Position numbers and translations under genes: made by a program. From an uncultured Candidatus Saccharibacteria bacterium (GTDB lineage Bacteria > Patescibacteriota > Minisyncoccia > Phycocordibacterales > DATDWN01), in contig CAZQYV010000002.1 in assembly GCA_964597675.1 (NCBI GenBank), positions 7,532 to 71,531 of the forward strand: a stretch of 64,000 bases of DNA. The letters run 5' to 3'. Positions 1,026-63,767 of this stretch are shown one piece after another. The notes under the pieces were generated by a model that saw only the letters and a list, made by a program, of their open reading frames with translations, was not told the origin of the DNA and searched no databases. Each line of letters starts with the position of its first letter. Position 1 is the stretch's first letter.

Positions 1026-3299
1026 ATGAATACACGAACAAAAAAATTTTTCGGCATCTACCTACCAATTATTCTTATTATCGTAACTATTTTTGTTGCA
1101 AGTTTCTTTTTTCAAAAAGTCGATACGGTTGAGGCGGGTTGGTATAACACTGGTGGTACATGGGGGTACCGTAAGGGGATTACTATTGATCACACCAAAG
1201 TTGGAGTTGGTACAACAACACCATTATTAAATTTTCCAATGCTATTTTCTGTAACAGACTCAGATCTAAAATTCACAGGTAGTGGAGGAAAGGTAGCATC
1301 ATCAACTGGGCTAGATATATTATTCACATCATCTGATGGAACAACAAAACTAGATTATGAAATGGAAAGTTATTCCAGTACAACAGGACAAGTTATAGCA
1401 TGGGTTCGTATTCCATCATTATCACCATCAGTTGATACTACTATATATGTATATTTTGGTAATGCCAGTGCAACTGATCAATCAAATAAGACGGGCGTGT
1501 GGGATTCAAGTTATAAAGGTGTGTGGCATTTGCCTGACGGTACAACTTTAACGGCAAATGATTCCACCAGTAACGCCAACAATGGGACTATAGTTGGAGC
1601 AACTGTTGCCACTGGTAAAATTGATGGTTCTGCAAATTTTGATGGAGTAGATGATTGGATCATAAGTTCAAATACTGTAAATACTGGAGTATCTACCGTT
1701 TCTACATGGGTTAAATTAAATGCTATTCCATCAGGGGATTCGTTAATAACTGGTTTTGTTCAAGGAAATGGTAGTACCGTATACGATAAGGATATTAAAA
1801 TTGACTCTGGGGGTTTAGTTAGATTTTATGTATATGGTTCTGGAACTCAGAACACCACCCCTACATCAGCACTGACAACAGGAGTATGGTATTACCTTGT
1901 AGGTACACAGGATGGGACTAATTCTTATATCTATCGTAATGGTGTACAGGAGGGTTCAGCTACAGTTGGAACTAGTTATACTAGTTATTCAAGTCCAAAT
2001 TTTTTAATTGGAGGTCGTTCATATGGATTAGGTCACACTAATCAAGTTTTGGATGAGGTTAGGTTTTCAAATATTGCACGTTCGGCGGATTGGATTGCCA
2101 CAGAGTATAATAACCAATCAAGCCCAAACACTTTTTATGTGTATGGGTCAATTGTTTTGTCAAGCCGTCCGCCAGACATCGCTGGTGTTGCTGTTAAAAA
2201 TCAGGTTACCACAGCACCAGGTTGGTACTCGACTGGTGGTCCTTGGTTATATAGAAAACAAATCACAGTTGATCATTCAAAAGTTTCAACAACAACATCA
2301 CTCACAGATTTTCCTATGCTTTTTTCTGTCACAGATATGGATTTAAAATATGTTGGTAATGGAGGGAAGATTGCTAGTTCGACTGGGGGTGACATTGTCT
2401 TTACATCTTCTGATGGGATAACTAAACTTTCTCATGAAATAGAAAAGTATTCATCAACCACGGGAGAGACAGTGGTATGGGTTAAAATCCCTACATTGTC
2501 CGGCGTGTCGGATACTATTATATATGTGTACTTTGGAAATGGTGAGGCAAGTAACCAACAAGACCCAGCGAACGTATGGGATAGTAACTATAAAGGGGTA
2601 TATCATTTGAAAGATGGGACAACACTCAACTATAGTGATAGTACTAGCAATGCAAAAAATGGTACTGTCGGGGGAGGGTCTTTTAATCCTACTGCAACAA
2701 CAGGGAAAGTAGATGGGGCAGCATCTTTTGATAACAATAGTTATCAATACATCTCTTTGCCAGGTAGTACGTTTGGTTCCGGTAGTGTGACAGTTGAGTT
2801 GTGGACAAAATTTACAACCTTTACAGGTTACTGGCCGATGTTTTCCGCTTATACTAATGATAGTAATTCAATAGAAATATTTGTTAATAATAATACTAAT
2901 TTATTTGGCGGTAATTATAACAACGCTGCAATTACTGGTGGAACGTTGGTGACTAATAAATGGTATCACGTTGTGTTAACCGCCGTTTCTGGGGGGGTTA
3001 CCCAATTCTATATAGACGGAGAACTCAGTGGAACGACCGGCACCACAAATTTTAGTACTTATACTGTAGCTCCATATATCGGTCGTCGTGCTGGTTATTA
3101 CTACAATAATATTATTGATGAAGTTAGACTGTCCTCGGGTATTGCCAGATCACCATATTGGATTAGGACGACATACAACAACCAATCATCACCAAATACT
3201 TTTTATGCCTATGGAAAATTGGAAAGTTCTAGCAGGGTAAATTCGTCCGGCGCTTCTGCTCCGACAGTAAAAACAAGGGGTGGAGTTAAGTTTCGTTAA
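1026..3299 (+). CDS. membrane-anchored surface protein with two tandem DUF2341 + LamG/ConA-like lectin modules
   Basis: N-terminal TM helix; two ~340 aa internal repeats (GWYNTGGTWGYRKGITIDHTKV... / GWYSTGGPWLYRKQITVDHSKV...) each followed by jelly-roll-like segment (DEVRFSNIARSADWI / DEVRLSSGIARSPYWI). Confidence 0.6.
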   Translation: MNTRTKKFFGIYLPIILIIVTIFVASFFFQKVDTVEAGWYNTGGTWGYRKGITIDHTKVGVGTTTPLLNFPMLFSVTDSDLKFTGSGGKVASSTGLDILFTSSDGTTKLDYEMESYSSTTGQVIAWVRIPSLSPSVDTTIYVYFGNASATDQSNKTGVWDSSYKGVWHLPDGTTLTANDSTSNANNGTIVGATVATGKIDGSANFDGVDDWIISSNTVNTGVSTVSTWVKLNAIPSGDSLITGFVQGNGSTVYDKDIKIDSGGLVRFYVYGSGTQNTTPTSALTTGVWYYLVGTQDGTNSYIYRNGVQEGSATVGTSYTSYSSPNFLIGGRSYGLGHTNQVLDEVRFSNIARSADWIATEYNNQSSPNTFYVYGSIVLSSRPPDIAGVAVKNQVTTAPGWYSTGGPWLYRKQITVDHSKVSTTTSLTDFPMLFSVTDMDLKYVGNGGKIASSTGGDIVFTSSDGITKLSHEIEKYSSTTGETVVWVKIPTLSGVSDTIIYVYFGNGEASNQQDPANVWDSNYKGVYHLKDGTTLNYSDSTSNAKNGTVGGGSFNPTATTGKVDGAASFDNNSYQYISLPGSTFGSGSVTVELWTKFTTFTGYWPMFSAYTNDSNSIEIFVNNNTNLFGGNYNNAAITGGTLVTNKWYHVVLTAVSGGVTQFYIDGELSGTTGTTNFSTYTVAPYIGRRAGYYYNNIIDEVRLSSGIARSPYWIRTTYNNQSSPNTFYAYGKLESSSRVNSSGASAPTVKTRGGVKFR

Positions 3300-3341
3300 T
3301 TATTTTGAGTGTGAAATTTATTATGTTAAAATAGAAATATT

Positions 3342-6715: not shown

Positions 6716-8392
6716 ATGGTAAAGCGTCTACTACATTTATTACATAAAGAGATATCCGGCCTTCACCAGGCCGCTTATCTTTTGGGTTTTTTTGCACTGT
6801 GCTCACAGTTTCTTGCATTAATCCGTGATCGCATGCTTGCGTCTAATTTTGGCGCAACAAATACTCTCGATTTATATTATGCCGCTTTCAGAATTCCTGA
6901 TATGCTTTTTGTTACAGCTGCATCTATTGTTTCCATATCGGTCATTATTCCATTTTTGGTTGAGCGATTTGAAAAAAGCGATGCAGCAGCAAAAGAGTTT
7001 CTTGATGATATTTTTACTTTTTTCTTTTGTTTTATTGTTGGTGTTGGATTGATTGCATTTATAACAGCACCTTATATTTTACTTTTGTTGTTTCCATCCT
7101 TTATTGCCACTGGCTCTTTCGATACCTTAGTTAGTCTTACTCGTATATTACTTTTGTCTCCAATTTTTCTGGGATTTTCAAATCTTTTGGCAAGTATTAC
7201 TCAGATACGTAAAAGATTTTTCGTGTATGCGATGTCTCCGGTTTTGTATAATATTGGCATTATATTTGGCATCATGTTTTTATATCCACTGTACGGATTG
7301 GTGGGCCTTGGGTGGGGTGTGGTTATTGGTGCATGTATGCATTTTGCTATTCAGTTACCTTTTGTTATCAGACAAGGATTATTGCCCAGTCTTTCTTTTC
7401 CGCTCCGATTCAATGCGATAAAACGTGTTATATATACATCAATACCTAGGACACTGACTGTTTCGTCAAACGAGATTGCAGAGTTGTTTCTTATTTCCTT
7501 TGCGTCATTTTTAATCCCCGGTTCTATTTCGATTTTTAATTTTTCTTTCAACCTTCAATCGGTACCATTTAGTATTATTGGTGTCAGTTATTCTCTGGCA
7601 GCATTCCCGACTCTTAGTCGTTTCTTTTCTCGAGGTGAGACGGGTGAATTTGTTCAGCAGATGATTACAACATCAAAACATATTATTTTTTGGTCTATTC
7701 CTATCTCGATTATGTTCATTGTTTTGAGGGCACAGATTGTTCGTACAATACTCGGGGCTGGACGTTTTAACTGGGATGATACACGACTGACTGCTGCAGC
7801 ACTGGCGATATTTACCATATCGCTAATTGCTCAAAATTTGATGACACTTTTTGTTCGCTCATACTATGCTAGAGGTAAGACACGAACGCCTTTGATTATG
7901 AATGTGATATCGGCCAGTGGTATTATTGCTATTAGTTTCGGTTTGGTTGAGTTATTTCAGCACAATCAATTTTTCAAAGATTTTGTGGAGTCATTACTCA
8001 AAGTTCAAGACATTTCTGGATCTGTCGTGCTTATGTTGCCACTCGGTTTTACTATAGGTGTAATATTAAACGTATGTATGCATTGGGTTGATTTTTCTCG
8101 AGAATTTCGTACATACTCACGAGAGGTTCTTTCCACATTGTTTCAGGTGCTTTCTGCATCTGTCATAATGGGTTACGTCACATACATTATGTTGAATGTT
8201 TTTGATGGTATATTTAATGTACATACTGGTTTAGGTATATTTATGCAAGGTTTTGTGTCCGGAATAGTCGGGATATGTGCCCTTGTTTTTGTACTATTTA
8301 TTCTAGGGAGTGTTGAACTTCGTATGGTATGGCAGACACTTCATCGTAAGATATGGAAGACAGAAGTCGTCCCTCCAGATGCTGAATTATAG
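6716..8392 (+). CDS. murJ: lipid II flippase MurJ/MviN
   Basis: 558 aa, ~14 TM, N-terminal LLGFFALCSQFLALIRDRMLASNFGATNTLDLYYAAFRIPDMLF signature. Confidence 0.8.
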   Translation: MVKRLLHLLHKEISGLHQAAYLLGFFALCSQFLALIRDRMLASNFGATNTLDLYYAAFRIPDMLFVTAASIVSISVIIPFLVERFEKSDAAAKEFLDDIFTFFFCFIVGVGLIAFITAPYILLLLFPSFIATGSFDTLVSLTRILLLSPIFLGFSNLLASITQIRKRFFVYAMSPVLYNIGIIFGIMFLYPLYGLVGLGWGVVIGACMHFAIQLPFVIRQGLLPSLSFPLRFNAIKRVIYTSIPRTLTVSSNEIAELFLISFASFLIPGSISIFNFSFNLQSVPFSIIGVSYSLAAFPTLSRFFSRGETGEFVQQMITTSKHIIFWSIPISIMFIVLRAQIVRTILGAGRFNWDDTRLTAAALAIFTISLIAQNLMTLFVRSYYARGKTRTPLIMNVISASGIIAISFGLVELFQHNQFFKDFVESLLKVQDISGSVVLMLPLGFTIGVILNVCMHWVDFSREFRTYSREVLSTLFQVLSASVIMGYVTYIMLNVFDGIFNVHTGLGIFMQGFVSGIVGICALVFVLFILGSVELRMVWQTLHRKIWKTEVVPPDAEL

Positions 8393-11201: not shown

Positions 11202-11336
11202 CAAAACACGTCAGTGTTTTTGACCTTGGTAAGAATCGAACAGGAAAGGGGTCGGGAAAACACTTGTTTTACCGTGGAGGAAGGATTGGGAAAACCGTGG
11301 GTTTCCCAGAGGTGAGATATCTCGCCGGGGGCACAG
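11202..11336 (+). repeat. tRNA-downstream module: hairpin, inverted T-arm copy (gaatcgaac 11234-11242), direct 16-nt copy of tRNA-Arg 3' end (tctcgccgggggcaca 11320-11336)
   Basis: direct sequence comparison with tRNA-Arg 11186-11203. Confidence 0.6.
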
Positions 11337-12113: not shown

Positions 12114-12186
12114 GCCGAGATAGCTCAGTTGGCAGAGCATTCGCCTGAAGAGCGAAGGGTCCCCAGTTCGACCCTGGGTCTCGGCA
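12114..12186 (+). tRNA. tRNA-Phe (anticodon GAA)
   Basis: GCCGAGA-TA-GCTC-AGTTGGCA-GAGC-A-TTCGC-ctGAAga-GCGAA-GGGTC-CCCAG-TTCGACC-CTGGG-TCTCGGC-A. Confidence 0.9.
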
Positions 12187-12344
12187 CAGAGAAGAAAACG
12201 AAGTTTTTTGGCCCAGGGTCGAACAGATTTTCGGTCTACGAGCCGAGCACGGCTTGTCGAAAATCTGGTGACCAGAATTATCTCGAGCGACGGCGAGAGA
12301 GAATTCGAGGGAGACATCCTGGGTCTCGGCACAGAGAAGAAAAA
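12187..12344 (+). repeat. tRNA-downstream module (best-preserved copy): AAAACGAAG box, inverted T-arm (gcccagggtcgaac), 10-bp hairpin, GAGCGACGGCGAG box (12285-12297), TTCGAGGGAGACAT box, 26-nt direct copy of tRNA-Phe 3' end (12318-12344)
   Basis: direct sequence comparison; same box order recurs at other tRNAs. Confidence 0.7.
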
Positions 12345-12383
12345 ACCACCCGTTCGACAAGCTCAGGGTGGCTTTTTTATTTT
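12345..12383 (+). terminator. rho-independent terminator
   Basis: ccaccc...gggtgg hairpin + TTTTTTATTTT. Confidence 0.6.
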
Positions 12384-49315: not shown

Positions 49316-49702
49316 ATGAAAAAAGATTTTCAGGAATGGCACAAAAGTAAAAGTGATATAGATGAACATAAAATACGTGCGTTTTTTCATGAACGAGAAA
49401 TTTGGTTTACGTCACTTGGTCTTAATGTTGGTTTTGAACAAGATGGAAGGGGAGATAAATTCTTGCGCCCTATAATTATATTGAAAAAATTTAATAATGA
49501 GGTGCTGTGGTGTATTCCACTCACTAAAAATCATAAAAAAGGAAAATATTACTTCTCCTTTCATCTTGAAGATAAAATTAGTACAGCAATTCTTTCCCAA
49601 ATTAGATTAGTTGATGCAAAACGCTTACAATACAAAATTGGTGATATTAGCGAAGAAAATTTTGATGAGTTAAAACAAAAACTCATACAATTGCTTGCAT
49701 GA
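49316..49702 (+). CDS. PemK/MazF-family toxin-like protein (mRNA interferase fold)
   Basis: RPIIILKKFNNEVLWCIPLTKN motif; no obvious antitoxin partner. Confidence 0.5.
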   Translation: MKKDFQEWHKSKSDIDEHKIRAFFHEREIWFTSLGLNVGFEQDGRGDKFLRPIIILKKFNNEVLWCIPLTKNHKKGKYYFSFHLEDKISTAILSQIRLVDAKRLQYKIGDISEENFDELKQKLIQLLA

Positions 49703-49784: not shown

Positions 49785-49951
49785 GTGGCGAGAGAGGAAT
49801 CTTGACCATTACATGGTCAGTACACCTTTTCTATTTTTTACTTCGCTCCACTCGTAAAAAATTATCAAAGGTTTTCAAGTCCTCACGAAAGCCGTGTCAA
49901 CGGCTTTCTTCTCGTCCCAAACAAAAAACAGCATAAAGCTGTTTTGTATTT
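49785..49951 (-). repeat. tRNA-Leu(TAG) downstream module: hairpins, inverted T-arm copy (ggacttgaa), degenerate direct copy of tRNA 3' end (49785-49807)
   Basis: gtggcgagagaggaatcttgacc vs tRNA gtgggcgagagaggacttgaacc. Confidence 0.55.
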
Positions 49952-50034: not shown

Positions 50035-50134
50035 AATACGTACACTCTACTGTATTTTGAGAAAAAAATAAAGAAGGCTGATATATAGCACTATTCCGCT
50101 TGTTTTGCAGTATCTTTGTGTCTTGGATATTTCG

Positions 50135-50260
50135 CTCGTCGTCACTCGCGAAATTCCTCCGACCCAGACCTCGCTGGTTTTGCCTACTGGCAAAACATAG
50201 CTCCGGTCTGCACATGTACGAGAAAGCCCCATGCAGATGGGGCTTTCTCGTACATGTGCA
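50135..50260 (-). repeat. tRNA-Lys downstream variant module: 23-bp perfect hairpin (50209-50260, overlaps last 4 nt of tRNA) and GAGTGACGACGAG box (rc at 50135-50147)
   Basis: tgcacatgtacgagaaagcccca-tgcaga-tggggctttctcgtacatgtgca. Confidence 0.7.
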
Positions 50261-50392: not shown

Positions 50393-50565
50393 GTGCCCGA
50401 GGTGGAAATCTTCCGCGATTCAAAACTCGCCGTCGCTCATTTTGGTCGTGTCCGCGACTCGCGACCAGTCGTGCTCGACTGGTACCCGCTCCGTCTTTCG
50501 ATTCCCAACGTAAAGTCGTAACACGACTTTACTCTCGTGCTCAAAAACTATATACATAGTTTTTG
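50393..50565 (-). repeat. tRNA-Leu(TAA) downstream module: inverted T-arm copy, 9-bp hairpin (50464-50485), GAGCGACGGCGAG box (rc 50426-50438), degenerate direct copy of tRNA 3' end (50393-50410)
   Basis: tgcccgaggtggaaatc vs tRNA tgcccggagtgggaatc. Confidence 0.6.
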
Positions 50566-50647: not shown

Positions 50648-50709
50648 AATATAATTATAAAAAACATTCCGTCGGTTCAATTCCGCTAGAAAAAGCGCTG
50701 CTTTTTCTG

Positions 50710-59467: not shown

Positions 59468-59648
59468 CAAATTAAAAATACCCTTTTGGGTATTTTTAAT
59501 TTGTGGTGAGAGAAAGCCATATTATGGCTTTCGTAGGGACTCAAAACCTTTGATAGTTTTTTGTGATCCTGAGCTCGTCGAAGGAGATATAAAAAACAGA
59601 AAAGGTCTACTGATCCTGTAAGGATCGAATGTCCCTCTCCACGCACAA
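59468..59648 (+). repeat. tRNA-Tyr downstream module: terminator hairpin, inverted T-arm copy (gggactcaaaacc), TCGAAGGAGATAT box, direct 23-nt copy of tRNA 3' end (59626-59648)
   Basis: cgaatgtccctctccacgcacaa vs tRNA cgagtccctctccacgcacaa. Confidence 0.65.
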
Positions 59649-62432: not shown

Positions 62433-62606
62433 CAAAAAATCCCCCTTGTGGGGATTTTTTAGTCGGAGAACAAAACGAAGTTTTGTGCGAGGGGCTTGAA
62501 CGGATTTACGGTGTACGCTCGCAGCAGCGAGTGTCGTAAATCCGGCGACTAGGTTTTTTTGTGAGCGACGGCGAGCAAAAAATGTAGTCGAGATTCCCCC
62601 CTCCTT
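62433..62606 (+). repeat. tRNA-Leu(CAA) downstream module: terminator hairpin, AAAACGAAG box, inverted T-arm copy, 7-bp hairpin, GAGCGACGGCGAG box (62563-62575), partial 3' copy
   Basis: box order and sequences parallel tRNA-Phe module. Confidence 0.65.
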
Positions 62607-63767
62607 CTAAAAATCATTTAGCAGTTTGATATCAGCACCAATAGAATTTAGTCTCTCCGCGATATTTTCATATCCTCGATTGATTGCGTAAACATTTCGT
62701 AAAATAGACGTACCTTTTGCTCCTAGCATCGCCACGAGAATAATCATAGCGGGGCGGAGCGCTGGGGGACATACGATTTGATTTGCTTTAAGTGTTCGTG
62801 GACCATTTACAAAAACTCGATGTGGGTCAGCCAACACTATATCAGCACCGAGTCGGTTAAGCTCTGTAAAATAAATTGCACGGTTTTCCCACATCCAGTC
62901 ATGAATAAGTGTTGTGCCATGGGCAATATTTGCTATTGGAACAAAGAAGGGCAGGTTGTCGGTATTGATACCAGGGTATGCTGATGCATGGATTTTATCA
63001 TTTTGTGCTACAAGTTTTGAAGGCAAAATAGTAATATCACATAGTCGTGTCGATTCATTTTTAGCGAGATATATTTTTGATGAGGTGTATTTGAGCCCCA
63101 TCTTTTTCAGTTTTAGTAATTCAAGAGCCAGAAAGTCAATTGGACATCGGGTAATAGTTAATTTTGACCCTGTAACAATAGCAGCTGAGATAAACATCAT
63201 AGATTCGATTGGATCTTCGCTATTCCAATATTCGATTGGAGTGTTAATTTCTTTGACACCATGTATCACTAGTGTACTTGTTCCAACACCTTCAATCTTC
63301 ACACCGCATTTTTGTAAGAAGAAACACACTTCTTGCACTTGGTAGTTTGGAGGAGTAAAACGCAGTGTAGTCATACCTGGGATCAGTGCCGCTGCAATAA
63401 TCATGTTTTCTGTGGCTGTATCACTAGATTCATACATCACAATGTCCGCTGGGTGTAATTTTTTGTGTTTGATTTCGTAATAGTGCTCTTTGGTACTGAT
63501 TGATACACCAATTTCTTCAAATGCATATCTGTGTGCGGCAATAGTACGCCCACCCATTTTGCATCCTCCAGCGTGGGGGATAATGAATGACTGACCAGCA
63601 TGTATAAGCCCTCCAATCATCATAAGAATTGATCGAATTCGCGGAGTTTTTTCATGATCAAGACCTGCAAAATTAAATTTCTTTGGTGGTGTGATTTTGA
63701 CTGTATTATGTTCTAACCAATCAACTTTGACTCCAATAGATTCAAAAATTTCTATGATGCGAGCCAT
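62607..63767 (-). CDS. murA: UDP-N-acetylglucosamine 1-carboxyvinyltransferase MurA (true N-terminus lies upstream of the listed ATG; start codon unresolved)
   Basis: EPT-family blocks; in-frame upstream translation ...DDFQIVGGRKLSGTIETNTSKNGALGLFCAALL matches MurA residues ~2-40 but contains no ATG/GTG/TTG. Confidence 0.75.
   Translation of the reverse strand: MARIIEIFESIGVKVDWLEHNTVKITPPKKFNFAGLDHEKTPRIRSILMMIGGLIHAGQSFIIPHAGGCKMGGRTIAAHRYAFEEIGVSISTKEHYYEIKHKKLHPADIVMYESSDTATENMIIAAALIPGMTTLRFTPPNYQVQEVCFFLQKCGVKIEGVGTSTLVIHGVKEINTPIEYWNSEDPIESMMFISAAIVTGSKLTITRCPIDFLALELLKLKKMGLKYTSSKIYLAKNESTRLCDITILPSKLVAQNDKIHASAYPGINTDNLPFFVPIANIAHGTTLIHDWMWENRAIYFTELNRLGADIVLADPHRVFVNGPRTLKANQIVCPPALRPAMIILVAMLGAKGTSILRNVYAINRGYENIAERLNSIGADIKLLNDF

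Follow-up and report, generated by a model that had tools for sequence, protein, structure and literature searches.

The question raised by this locus is what kind of sequence follows its transfer RNA (tRNA) genes. We analyzed a 64-kb segment of the chromosome of an uncultured Candidatus Saccharibacteria bacterium (contig CAZQYV010000002.1; this whole stretch is called the window below), in which an initial annotation had flagged a structured module directly downstream of the tRNA-Phe gene and of most other tRNA genes, and had attributed it to integrative elements that target tRNA genes. Our preferred answer, to which we assign a probability of about one half, is that the module is a non-autonomous insertion cassette for the 3' ends of tRNA and transfer-messenger RNA (tmRNA) genes, and that it encodes a structured RNA with an antisense arm that reads the target by base pairing. 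The cassette family is non-coding, small (about 150-200 nt) and spread across the Patescibacteria, and other cores (types B and C and the Arg type) can take the place of the type A core present at tRNA-Phe.

The window contains 12 tRNA genes (called by ARAGORN), the RNase P RNA (Rfam) and housekeeping genes. By its IF-2 homologues it belongs to a Patescibacteria member of the Parcubacteria/Paceibacteria type. At tRNA-Phe (12114-12343), the tRNA, hairpins, arm, boxes and 26-nt repeat are present in the order that the initial annotation gave (Table 1). We built a covariance model from 32 copies (R1) and scanned the window with filters off. There were eight significant matches (Glu, Leu-TAA, Phe, Leu-CAA, Ser, Lys, Leu-TAG and Tyr), all of them directly 3' of a tRNA gene on the same strand, and no other significant match. 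The 13-nt box GAGYGACGRCGAG occurs five times in the window, each time in a module downstream of a tRNA gene (Phe, Glu, Lys, Leu-TAA and Leu-CAA), compared with 0.04 copies expected from shuffled sequence; within the window, the proposed enrichment of the boxes downstream of tRNA genes was borne out. The same module had been claimed for at least 10 of the 12 tRNA genes. Eight are recovered by R1, but Arg has the arms on another core, and Cys retains only a stub that is cut off by the promoter region of the next tRNA gene. Nor is the order of parts the same everywhere: Lys lacks both tRNA-specific arms, and Leu-TAG and Tyr carry a second core (type B) without the 13-nt box. The core at Arg is a third kind, and a lineage-specific P2 hairpin is common to the Phe, Ser and Leu-CAA copies.

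The part of the cassette next to the tRNA is specific to that tRNA. It begins with a new trailer, usually a hairpin, which often pairs back onto the acceptor 3' strand. The antisense arm then runs from position 74 to 66, is interrupted opposite position 65 by a 9-bp hairpin (P0, usually with a CUGC loop), and continues from position 64 to 53, always ending in GAAC, the complement of the G53 end. The complement of the acceptor 3' strand lies upstream of P0 and that of the T-stem 3' strand and T-loop lies downstream. The initial annotation had called this an inverted copy of the T-arm. At wobble or mismatch pairs of the tRNA, however, 16 of 21 arm positions carry the base that is Watson-Crick complementary to the 3' strand (G3·U70 of tRNA-Ala, for example, becomes A-U), indicating that the arm is antisense to that strand and does not copy the 5' strand. 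Identity of the arms to the tRNA was 0.92, 0.81 and 0.86, and in the window the inverted arm scored as cognate at Phe, Ser, Glu, Leu-TAG, Leu-TAA and Cys. The complementarity usually runs on through the trailer, so that the acceptor 3' strand with the trailer and the anti-acceptor arm form one long hairpin, which was closed in 28/31 (median 47 nt, 18 bp and -25.8 kcal/mol).

At its far end the cassette has a direct repeat of the tRNA 3' segment. Its first nucleotide lies within the T-loop or immediately beyond it (position 57, 60 or 61). Of 48 copies, 22 reach the gene end (positions 74-77) and 13 stop short at 66-69; in tandem cases the repeat extends into the trailer or a second unit. By longest common substring, the copy is clearly cognate at six tRNA genes of the window (Arg 15, Phe 15+, Ser 17, Tyr 16, Leu-TAG 12 and Glu 10), but it is degenerate at Leu-TAA and Leu-CAA and absent at Lys, Cys, Val and Trp. 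In 50 related loci the formal score was 13.5 nt for cognate and 5.8 nt for non-cognate pairs, in agreement with the earlier claim. About 40% of the copies are degenerate or truncated. Among positions at which the distal repeat no longer agrees with the tRNA, 76 have the antisense arm pairing with the tRNA and 4 with the repeat, which indicates that pairing between arm and repeat is not what is kept. Leu-TAA in the window departs from this: its two arms match one another and not the tRNA, as would be expected if the element had arrived from a host whose tRNA differed slightly. Minimum-energy folding of the tRNA-plus-cassette transcript predicts that the antisense arm takes up the 3' half of the tRNA and that the 5' strand of the tRNA pairs with the distal repeat.

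Between the arms lies a core with a conserved fold. In an alignment of 89 sequences, all 33 of the modelled pairs had changes on both sides, with 899 compensatory cells, and 95.3% of cells were standard pairs, compared with 62.7% after shuffling and 35-45% when the partners were slid. There were 82 G·U pairs and 21 A·C mismatches, and this excess identifies the folded strand as the tRNA-sense strand. Such a wobble bias would be seen for RNA and for sense-strand DNA alike. The core is a three-way junction with two hairpins. P2 has a conserved internal loop (GGAGC/GCGAG), and P3 is closed by the loop GAGYGACGRCGAG, in which positions 4 and 9 covary (C-G or U-A). The junction strands GGUGCCYAG and AGUCGARGGAGA are conserved, and their CC and GG pair together. 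This strong compensatory covariation shows that the shared boxes are not linear sites, contrary to the suggestion that they are recombinase arm sites; they form the loops and the junction strands of a structure folded from the tRNA-sense strand.

Three cassettes in one genome (L061: 4176-4353, 4464-4641 and 7803-7980; L-numbers are labels of sampled loci) have the loop UUUUUGACGAAAAA in place of GAGCGACGGCGAG. They retain the GACG tetraloop but have U-A pairs where other copies have tandem G·A pairs, so the invariant part of the box may be the tetraloop alone. A junction sub-variant, GCGGACACGAC, occurs at Gly, Ser and Leu tRNAs of different lineages. A fourth core, type C, is common in other genomes. 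It has a contiguous antisense arm of 16-17 nt without P0 and a conserved hairpin, GAGTACTTATGAGCAAAGCGAATTAGTAACTC, is the first unit after the tRNA at L038, L057, L063, L112 and L022, and is often stacked before type A. With Rfam 15 at the gathering threshold, only tRNAs and the RNase P RNA were found in the window. Permissive Rfam scans of the Phe cassette and of the consensus-type cassette at L040 gave noise and generic long-hairpin (microRNA-precursor) matches to the trailer hairpin, and no known ribozyme model matched the cassette. As modelled, a three-way junction with invariant junction nucleotides would be compatible with a new class of self-cleaving ribozyme.

Related loci were collected by an exact-pattern scan of one genome per species. 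There were at least 122 matches. Among the matches listed, 50 lie 100-330 nt downstream of a tRNA gene on the same strand, and those away from tRNA genes are chance matches in GC-rich genomes. The lineages named among the matches listed include Saccharibacteria, Paceibacterota, Kaiser-, Taylor-, Yonath-, Zambryski-, Campbell-, Vogel-, Yanofsky- and Woesebacteria, and the record titles of those 50 are Patescibacteria lineages or unspecific, save two. These two (L025, labelled Draconibacterium orientale, and L033, labelled Gammaproteobacteria) have typical cassettes behind tRNA-Ser and are probably mis-binned Patescibacteria contigs. We also ran R1 on 66 sources and obtained 89 matches, 69 of which start no more than 60 nt after a tRNA gene on the same strand. 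The others mostly belong to arrays as second or later units, follow cargo or a tmRNA gene, or lie at the edge of a sequence. Cassettes occur after all sampled isotypes and after the tmRNA gene, ssrA (L111, 5730-6534; L059, 7624-8000; both tmRNAs were missed by ARAGORN and detected by Rfam), where the arms fit the T-arm and acceptor of tmRNA. An antisense arm was found within 450 nt of 63 of the 142 tRNAs in Patescibacteria loci (~44%) and of none of the 13 in other loci. Cores from distant hosts can be nearly the same: those at a Saccharibacteria tRNA-Gln and a Minisyncoccia tRNA-Val are 93% identical, including the freely covarying P3 stem, compared with a median of 62% for cross-lineage pairs. 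Two further tRNA-Phe genes that ARAGORN missed (L060, about 2990-3330; L122, about 7310-7640) are interrupted in the anticodon loop by an intron of ~250 nt, probably of group I, and are followed by a normal type A cassette. Group I introns in tRNAs of Patescibacteria have been described (PMC13011429).

The same tRNA gene can be followed by different cassettes or by none. Gene order in relatives differs from that in the window (the closest IF-2 homologue is 77% identical), and a synteny walk from IF-2 gave no orthologous tRNA loci. We compared 15 metagenome contigs and 3 assembly loci that share an identical 49-nt 3' part of tRNA-Gly-GCC. A type A cassette comes after it in one Zambryskibacteria species, and a type B cassette with two remnants in another organism. 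Ten contigs have no cassette at this place, among them close relatives that share the convergent tRNA-Arg. A gene for the CCA-adding enzyme adjoins the tRNA-Gly/tRNA-Arg pair in Zambryskibacteria and relatives (L067/L132, 5701-7170), and the orientation of tRNA-Arg in L134 differs from that in L132/L136. Repeated TGTGGATAA-type (DnaA-box-like) motifs shortly after tRNA-Gly-GCC at L137/L143, L139, L142 and L148 suggest that this gene lies beside the replication origin in those genomes.

Cassettes also accumulate behind single tRNA genes, and genes accumulate with them. Behind tRNA-Trp at L063 there are four stacked cassettes with different core types, all with tRNA-Trp arms, and the most degenerate repeat is the outermost. 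Two identical tandem units follow the tmRNA at L111, with a different, unique trailer only after the last repeat, and L079 and L128 have 55-57-nt repeats that include the trailer hairpin. The cargo open reading frame (ORF) that the initial annotation had reported at tRNA-Glu was confirmed: it encodes 201 amino acids, lies between the tRNA and the cassette, and has a GC content of 26-29%, compared with about 45% in the flanks. Cargo is present between tRNA and module at four other loci (L100, L116, L120 and L022), and genes found in this position elsewhere encode GIY-YIG and GmrSD proteins, a hydrolase and a carbamoyltransferase. It separates the tRNA from the cassette by 0.6-7 kb. At L022, a 6.7-kb island without an integrase lies between tRNA-Asn with its type C cassette and an outer type A cassette with arms for that same tRNA-Asn. 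Immediately past the tRNA-Glu cassette of the window is a 269-amino-acid ORF (24944-25753, + strand) that matches the phage protein family phrog_36907 (E=1.5e-33) and has no Pfam or defence-system match; its GC content (52-54%) is above that of the surroundings. The tRNA-Glu flank looks like a small mosaic island.

These observations could be explained as follows. A cassette would enter at the 3' end of the tRNA gene, leaving the tRNA intact because the element supplies a trailer. A second copy of the tRNA 3' segment would stay at the distal end, resembling an att site or target duplication, and would then decay. Newer insertions, whether cassettes or gene cargo, would land beside the tRNA and push older ones outward. 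A read-through transcript would make the conserved fold, a scaffold RNA that would recognize the tRNA 3' segment through base pairing of its antisense arm, and insertion would be catalyzed in trans by a host or helper enzyme. The arm might come to match a new tRNA by re-tailoring at insertion. Alternatively, imported cores might replace resident cores by recombination; near-identical cores with different P0 and terminator stems indicate that an incoming core could do so without rewriting of the arms. A tentative extension of this idea, which we consider possible though doubtful, is that the cassettes represent a novel class of mobile elements guided by nucleic acid. A ~100-nt RNA or folded single strand would then read the last ~20 nt of the tRNA or tmRNA gene through a re-programmable antisense arm, insertion or excision at the T-loop or 3' end would be directed by it or, if it is a ribozyme, catalyzed by it, the replacement trailer would keep the tRNA functional, and cores A, B, C and Arg-type would be alternative scaffolds.

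Several findings weigh against insertion cassettes. There is no recombinase or transposase in or beside the cassettes or islands examined (the window loci, L022, L100, L116 and L120), and the recombinase gene that had been anticipated beside the same boxes did not appear. We found no free or circular form of the cassette and no match to it by blastn against phage and plasmid collections. The box pattern is absent from 2.9 million viral contigs, in which two scans gave only chance matches in GC-rich coding sequence without tRNAs. The comparison with relatives that lack the module established absence behind an identical tRNA-Gly-GCC, but an exact empty site with clean boundaries was not recovered: the tRNA-Gly/tRNA-Arg spacers differ between occupied and empty relatives. 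A terminator-like hairpin lies between the tRNA and the core in 27 of 56 cassettes, so that any transcription of the core there would depend on read-through. A switch to another tRNA requires that ~40 nt of arm be rewritten, for which there is no demonstrated mechanism. Within one genome, cores are nearly identical while P0 and terminator stems have diverged, a pattern that gene conversion between resident cassettes fits at least as well as recent transposition. Finally, the very high conservation of the loops across classes and the occupation of 10 of 12 tRNA genes in a streamlined genome could reflect a host function.

A host function is central to one rival, in which the cassette is a resident, co-transcribed 3'-trailer RNA that acts in cis, is specific to the lineage, and pairs its arm with the 3' half of its own pre-tRNA. 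The core would recruit a conserved factor, with possible roles in 3'-end maturation (RNase III or RNase Z might, for instance, cleave the long helix containing the acceptor 3' strand), in quality control or in regulation; unequal crossing-over would produce the arrays and repeats, and gene conversion the similar cores. The invariable position on the tRNA strand directly downstream, the RNA-like fold with its G·U excess on the sense strand and the continuous acceptor hairpin (28/31) fit this explanation, as do the predicted capture of the tRNA 3' half with pairing of the 5' strand to the distal repeat, the occupation of 10 of 12 tRNA genes in the window, and patches of within-genome identity that resemble concerted evolution. 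It nevertheless seems unlikely. Many relatives have the same tRNA sequence without any cassette, which weakens the obligatory lineage-specific trailer that the initial annotation had offered as its alternative, and only about 44% of tRNAs in related loci have an antisense arm. About half of the cassettes have a terminator-like hairpin ahead of the core. Moreover, arms decay without compensation, several unrelated core types with the same arm logic are stacked behind one tRNA, and 0.6-7 kb of cargo can intervene between tRNA and cassette.

Two other rivals retain insertion and differ in what the fold does. The cassette might be a folded single-stranded DNA recombination site, like integron attC or the CTX-phage attP, in which the antisense arm and the sense repeat (or the tRNA 3' end) rebuild a duplex of the tRNA-gene 3' segment. 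A Xer-type tyrosine recombinase would act in trans, and cassettes would gather at the tRNA gene as integron cassettes do at attI. The arm is a perfect Watson-Crick complement and not a wobble-tolerant tRNA mimic, sense-strand DNA would give the same wobble bias, and the arrays are tRNA-proximal, with ORF-less and ORF-bearing units that lack their own integrase. The repeat also spans the T-loop to the gene end; T-loop-type tRNA integrases are said, in work by Williams from 2002, to use identity blocks with matching boundaries (T-loop to gene end). We think this improbable, given that the loops and junctions are far more conserved in sequence than attC, which keeps structure only, that tandem G·A pairs and tetraloop-like motifs are typical of RNA, that ORF cargo units lack an antisense arm and core of their own, and that no co-occurring recombinase was seen. 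Very improbable, in our judgment, is the initial reading of the modules as decayed att-proximal remnants of integrase islands or prophages with boxes as arm-binding sites. The tRNA 3' end is indeed directly repeated, foreign genes are present at some loci (the low-GC ORF at tRNA-Glu and its phrog_36907 neighbor, GmrSD and GIY-YIG), and repeat-bounded units, arrays, cargo and presence or absence behind an identical tRNA uphold the integrative part of that reading. The recombinase part does not hold: covariation makes the boxes structural loops, none of ~90 copies examined has an adjacent integrase, the box pattern is missing from the 2.9 million viral contigs and the phage and plasmid collections, and the size is uniform at about 170 nt.

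Other candidates were rejected. Box enrichment, covariation and cognate-arm scoring rule out chance or simple terminators, and to that extent the earlier statement that the modules are neither simple terminators nor random scars stands. An intrinsic terminator alone does not explain a hairpin that is present in just 27 of 56 cassettes and lies upstream of a conserved, covarying 100-nt core. A tRNA mimic (an acceptor/T minihelix for RNase P, aminoacyl-tRNA synthetases or the CCA enzyme) is opposed by an arm that is the 3'-strand complement with an anti-T-loop, and by the lack of compensation that would maintain pairing between antisense arm and distal repeat. A tRNA-like structure of the tmRNA or viral type is opposed by the replacement of wobble pairs by Watson-Crick pairs (16/21) and by a complement of the T-loop where a T-loop would be needed. 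The minimum-energy folds raised the possibility of a T-loop intron with the distal repeat as 3' exon, but about 40% of copies have a degenerate or truncated repeat there. For a T-box-like interaction between the junction GGUG and the NCCA end of the tRNA, the alignment showed no covariation with the discriminator base. A phage or plasmid origin found no real match in viral-contig scans or in blastn of phage and plasmid collections.

Table 1. Positions of the cassette at tRNA-Phe and of the other cassettes and their parts in the window
Feature	Position	Strand	Remarks
tRNA-Phe(GAA), host gene	12114-12187	+	ARAGORN; Rfam tRNA 66.7 bits
tRNA-Phe cassette, type A	12188-12343	+	R1 85.9 bits, E=1e-22
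Phe small hairpin P0	12195-12207	+	within trailer
Phe antisense (inverted) arm CCCAGGGTCGAAC	12212-12224	+	complement of tRNA positions 53-65
Phe long hairpin P2	12225-12266	+	
Phe junction GGTGACCAGAA	12267-12277	+	
Phe P3	12278-12303	+	loop box GAGCGACGGCGAG at 12285-12297
Phe junction box TTCGAGGGAGACAT	12304-12317	+	
Phe distal direct repeat, 26 nt	12318-12343	+	positions 60-74 plus 11 nt of trailer
Terminator-like hairpin with T-run	12340-12378	+	after Phe distal repeat; from sequence
tRNA-Arg(CCT) cassette, own core type	11203-11335	+	direct copy 15; no R1 match
Arg hairpin	11203-11220	+	
Arg antisense arm GGTAAGAATCGAAC	11228-11241	+	
Arg core	11242-11320	+	ends GAGGTGAGATAT
Arg distal repeat CTCGCCGGGGGCACA	11321-11335	+	
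tRNA-Ser(CGA) cassette, type A	23481-23667	-	R1 66.4 bits; P3 without 13-nt box
Ser terminator-like hairpin	23637-23668	-	
Ser anti-acceptor	23624-23632	-	
Ser P0	23607-23623	-	
Ser antisense T arm	23591-23601	-	
Ser P2	23549-23590	-	
Ser P3	23512-23537	-	
Ser TTCGAGGGAGAAAC	23498-23511	-	
Ser distal repeat	23481-23497	-	GCCA end
Cargo ORF, 201 amino acids	24010-24615	+	between tRNA-Glu and cassette; no family match
tRNA-Glu(TTC) cassette, type A	24655-24777	+	R1 115 bits
Glu antisense arm GGAGTCGAAC	24662-24671	+	
Glu P2	24672-24712	+	
Glu P3 with GAGTGACGACGAG	24730-24742	+	position of GAGTGACGACGAG; then GGCGAAGGAGACAT
Glu distal repeat TCCGCGTAGGGTCAC	24763-24777	+	
tRNA-Leu(TAG) cassette, type B core	49785-49951	-	R1 36 bits
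Leu-TAG terminator-like hairpin	49922-49945	-	
Leu-TAG anti-acceptor	49910-49918	-	
Leu-TAG P0	49887-49908	-	
Leu-TAG antisense T arm	49874-49884	-	
Leu-TAG core	49798-49873	-	
Leu-TAG distal repeat	49785-49797	-	
tRNA-Lys(CTT) cassette, degenerate	50126-50255	-	R1 56 bits
Lys long palindrome	50210-50255	-	includes tRNA end
Lys P2	50167-50208	-	
Lys P3 with GAGTGACGACGAG	50135-50147	-	antisense T arm and distal repeat both absent
tRNA-Leu(TAA) cassette, type A	50393-50564	-	R1 115 bits; junction variant GCGGACACGAC
Leu-TAA anti-acceptor GCACGAG	50534-50540	-	
Leu-TAA P0	50510-50532	-	
Leu-TAA antisense T arm	50496-50507	-	
Leu-TAA P2	50456-50495	-	
Leu-TAA box within P3	50426-50438	-	
Leu-TAA distal repeat CCACCTCGGGCAC	50393-50405	-	pairs with own anti-acceptor; no match to tRNA
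tRNA-Cys(GCA) stub, 45 nt	50665-50708	-	arm match 12/12; includes first 10 nt of P2
Cys hairpin	50688-50708	-	
Cys antisense arm GCGGAATTGAAC	50675-50686	-	perfect, 12 nt
tRNA-Tyr(GTA) cassette, type B core	59469-59648	+	R1 21.7 bits; direct copy 16
Tyr terminator-like hairpin	59469-59502	+	
Tyr anti-acceptor	59503-59512	+	
Tyr P0	59513-59531	+	
Tyr antisense T arm	59535-59545	+	
Tyr core	59546-59631	+	
Tyr distal repeat	59632-59648	+	
tRNA-Leu(CAA) cassette, type A	62434-62607	+	R1 71 bits
Leu-CAA terminator-like hairpin	62434-62460	+	
Leu-CAA anti-acceptor	62462-62468	+	
Leu-CAA P0	62470-62486	+	
Leu-CAA antisense T arm	62489-62501	+	
Leu-CAA P2	62502-62543	+	
Leu-CAA box within P3	62563-62575	+	
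Leu-CAA distal repeat	62596-62607	+	degenerate

As had been noted earlier, CA directly follows the discriminator (N73-C74-A75 instead of CCA) in 11 of the 12 tRNA genes of the window, the exception being tRNA-Ser, which has CCA; tRNA-Phe ends N73-C74 with A75 next. In related Patescibacteria loci (L016-L136), CA follows the discriminator in 102 of 141 tRNAs and C74 is present in 137 of 141. This looks like either a lineage-wide 3'-end signal or a by-product of A-rich trailers. Directly after the Leu-TAG distal repeat there is a near-consensus promoter-like site (49781-49754, - strand; TTGACA, 16 nt, TG-TATACT; 11/12), which faces a hairpin-rich non-coding stretch beside a gene for a PemK/MazF-type toxin (49316-49702).

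If the modules are insertion cassettes, then the very small genomes of Patescibacteria carry a phylum-wide set of non-coding elements of several families, occupying up to most of the tRNA genes. The cassettes would mark sites where accessory and defence genes gather, and the annotation of tRNA flanks and islands would change. The arm logic, a conserved scaffold with antisense and sense segments to a ~20-nt target that are rewritten for each isotype or tmRNA, resembles programmable recognition guided by base pairing. Finding a protein partner, or an RNA that acts alone, would reveal a new way in which DNA is inserted site-specifically and might provide a new tool. If the cassettes are instead resident trailers, they would still represent an RNA not described before, acting on the 3' halves of tRNAs in a major lineage of bacteria.

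How do the cassettes compare with known systems? Judged by sequence, they appear to be a tRNA-site insertion element that matches no Rfam family and for which we found no published description; a full-text literature search that included the box sequences gave, as the nearest paper, the one on group I introns in tRNAs (PMC13011429). Islands that target tRNA or tmRNA genes (tyrosine-integrase islands, their derivatives of the cis-mobilizable element (CIME) type that lack an integrase, and tycheposons) likewise use the 3' end, leave the tRNA intact, have a flanking repeat from T-loop to gene end, accumulate in tandem and carry cargo genes. By the features that define tyrosine-integrase elements, the flanking 3'-segment repeat and presence or absence at the same tRNA were found, but an integrase gene was not. 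Unlike these islands, the cassette is only ~170 nt long with no integrase nearby, and it has a covarying fold, a target-antisense arm and several core families with the same arm logic. Casposons make a similar duplication of 14-19 nt at the tRNA gene 3' end, and CRISPR arrays show polarized insertion beside a leader-like sequence with a degenerate distal repeat. In contrast to both, the cassette has no Cas1 or casposase, its repeat varies in length, and the inserted unit is a conserved structured sequence.

Small palindromic repeats and miniature inverted-repeat transposable elements (MITEs), such as Correia elements, repetitive extragenic palindromes and bacterial interspersed mosaic elements (REP/BIME), and Rickettsia palindromic elements, are also small, non-coding, multi-copy and hairpin-forming, and can supply terminators. 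Rickettsia palindromic elements also enter RNA genes, including that of tmRNA. MITEs have constant terminal inverted repeats and a fixed short target duplication, whereas the terminal arms of the cassette vary with the neighboring tRNA and its repeat varies in length; the cassette also differs in its strict site specificity and in a three-way junction conserved across classes.

Integron cassettes with attC, and the folded attP of CTX phage, resemble the cassettes in forming arrays of short units without a recombinase beside a fixed site, and attC is likewise an imperfect palindrome read on one strand, with ORF-less cassettes known. Here, however, the anchor is a tRNA gene and not attI with intI, the loop sequences are highly conserved, the arms copy or complement the target, and the R and L box consensus is absent: in place of the attC core sites RYYYAAC ... 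GTTRRRY, the arm ends are TCGAAC or TTGAAC and the T-loop is GTTCGAA, and an intI-like gene was seen at none of the loci. Guide RNAs of mobile elements (the bridge or seek RNA of insertion sequences IS110/IS1111, the omega RNA of IS200/605 and the guide of group I introns) also combine a 100-200-nt scaffold with target-complementary segments, and the target loop of the bridge RNA likewise has one segment antisense and one sense to the target. The cassette differs in having no attached recombinase, TnpB or IscB gene, and its guide segments flank the whole scaffold and both cover the same stretch of target. IS110 bridge RNAs are encoded in the non-coding end of an element with a DEDD recombinase and hold their target and donor guides in two internal loops; at the cassette there is no adjacent ORF, the variable segments are at the ends of the fold and the internal loops are invariant; nor is there an Rfam match to HEARO or IS605-orfB-type families. 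Taken together, these comparisons suggest that the cassette departs from each family in features that define it, that its scaffold and target-complementary segments recall bridge RNAs and intron guide sequences, and that it would work most like the integrative elements at tRNA genes and the cassettes of integrons.

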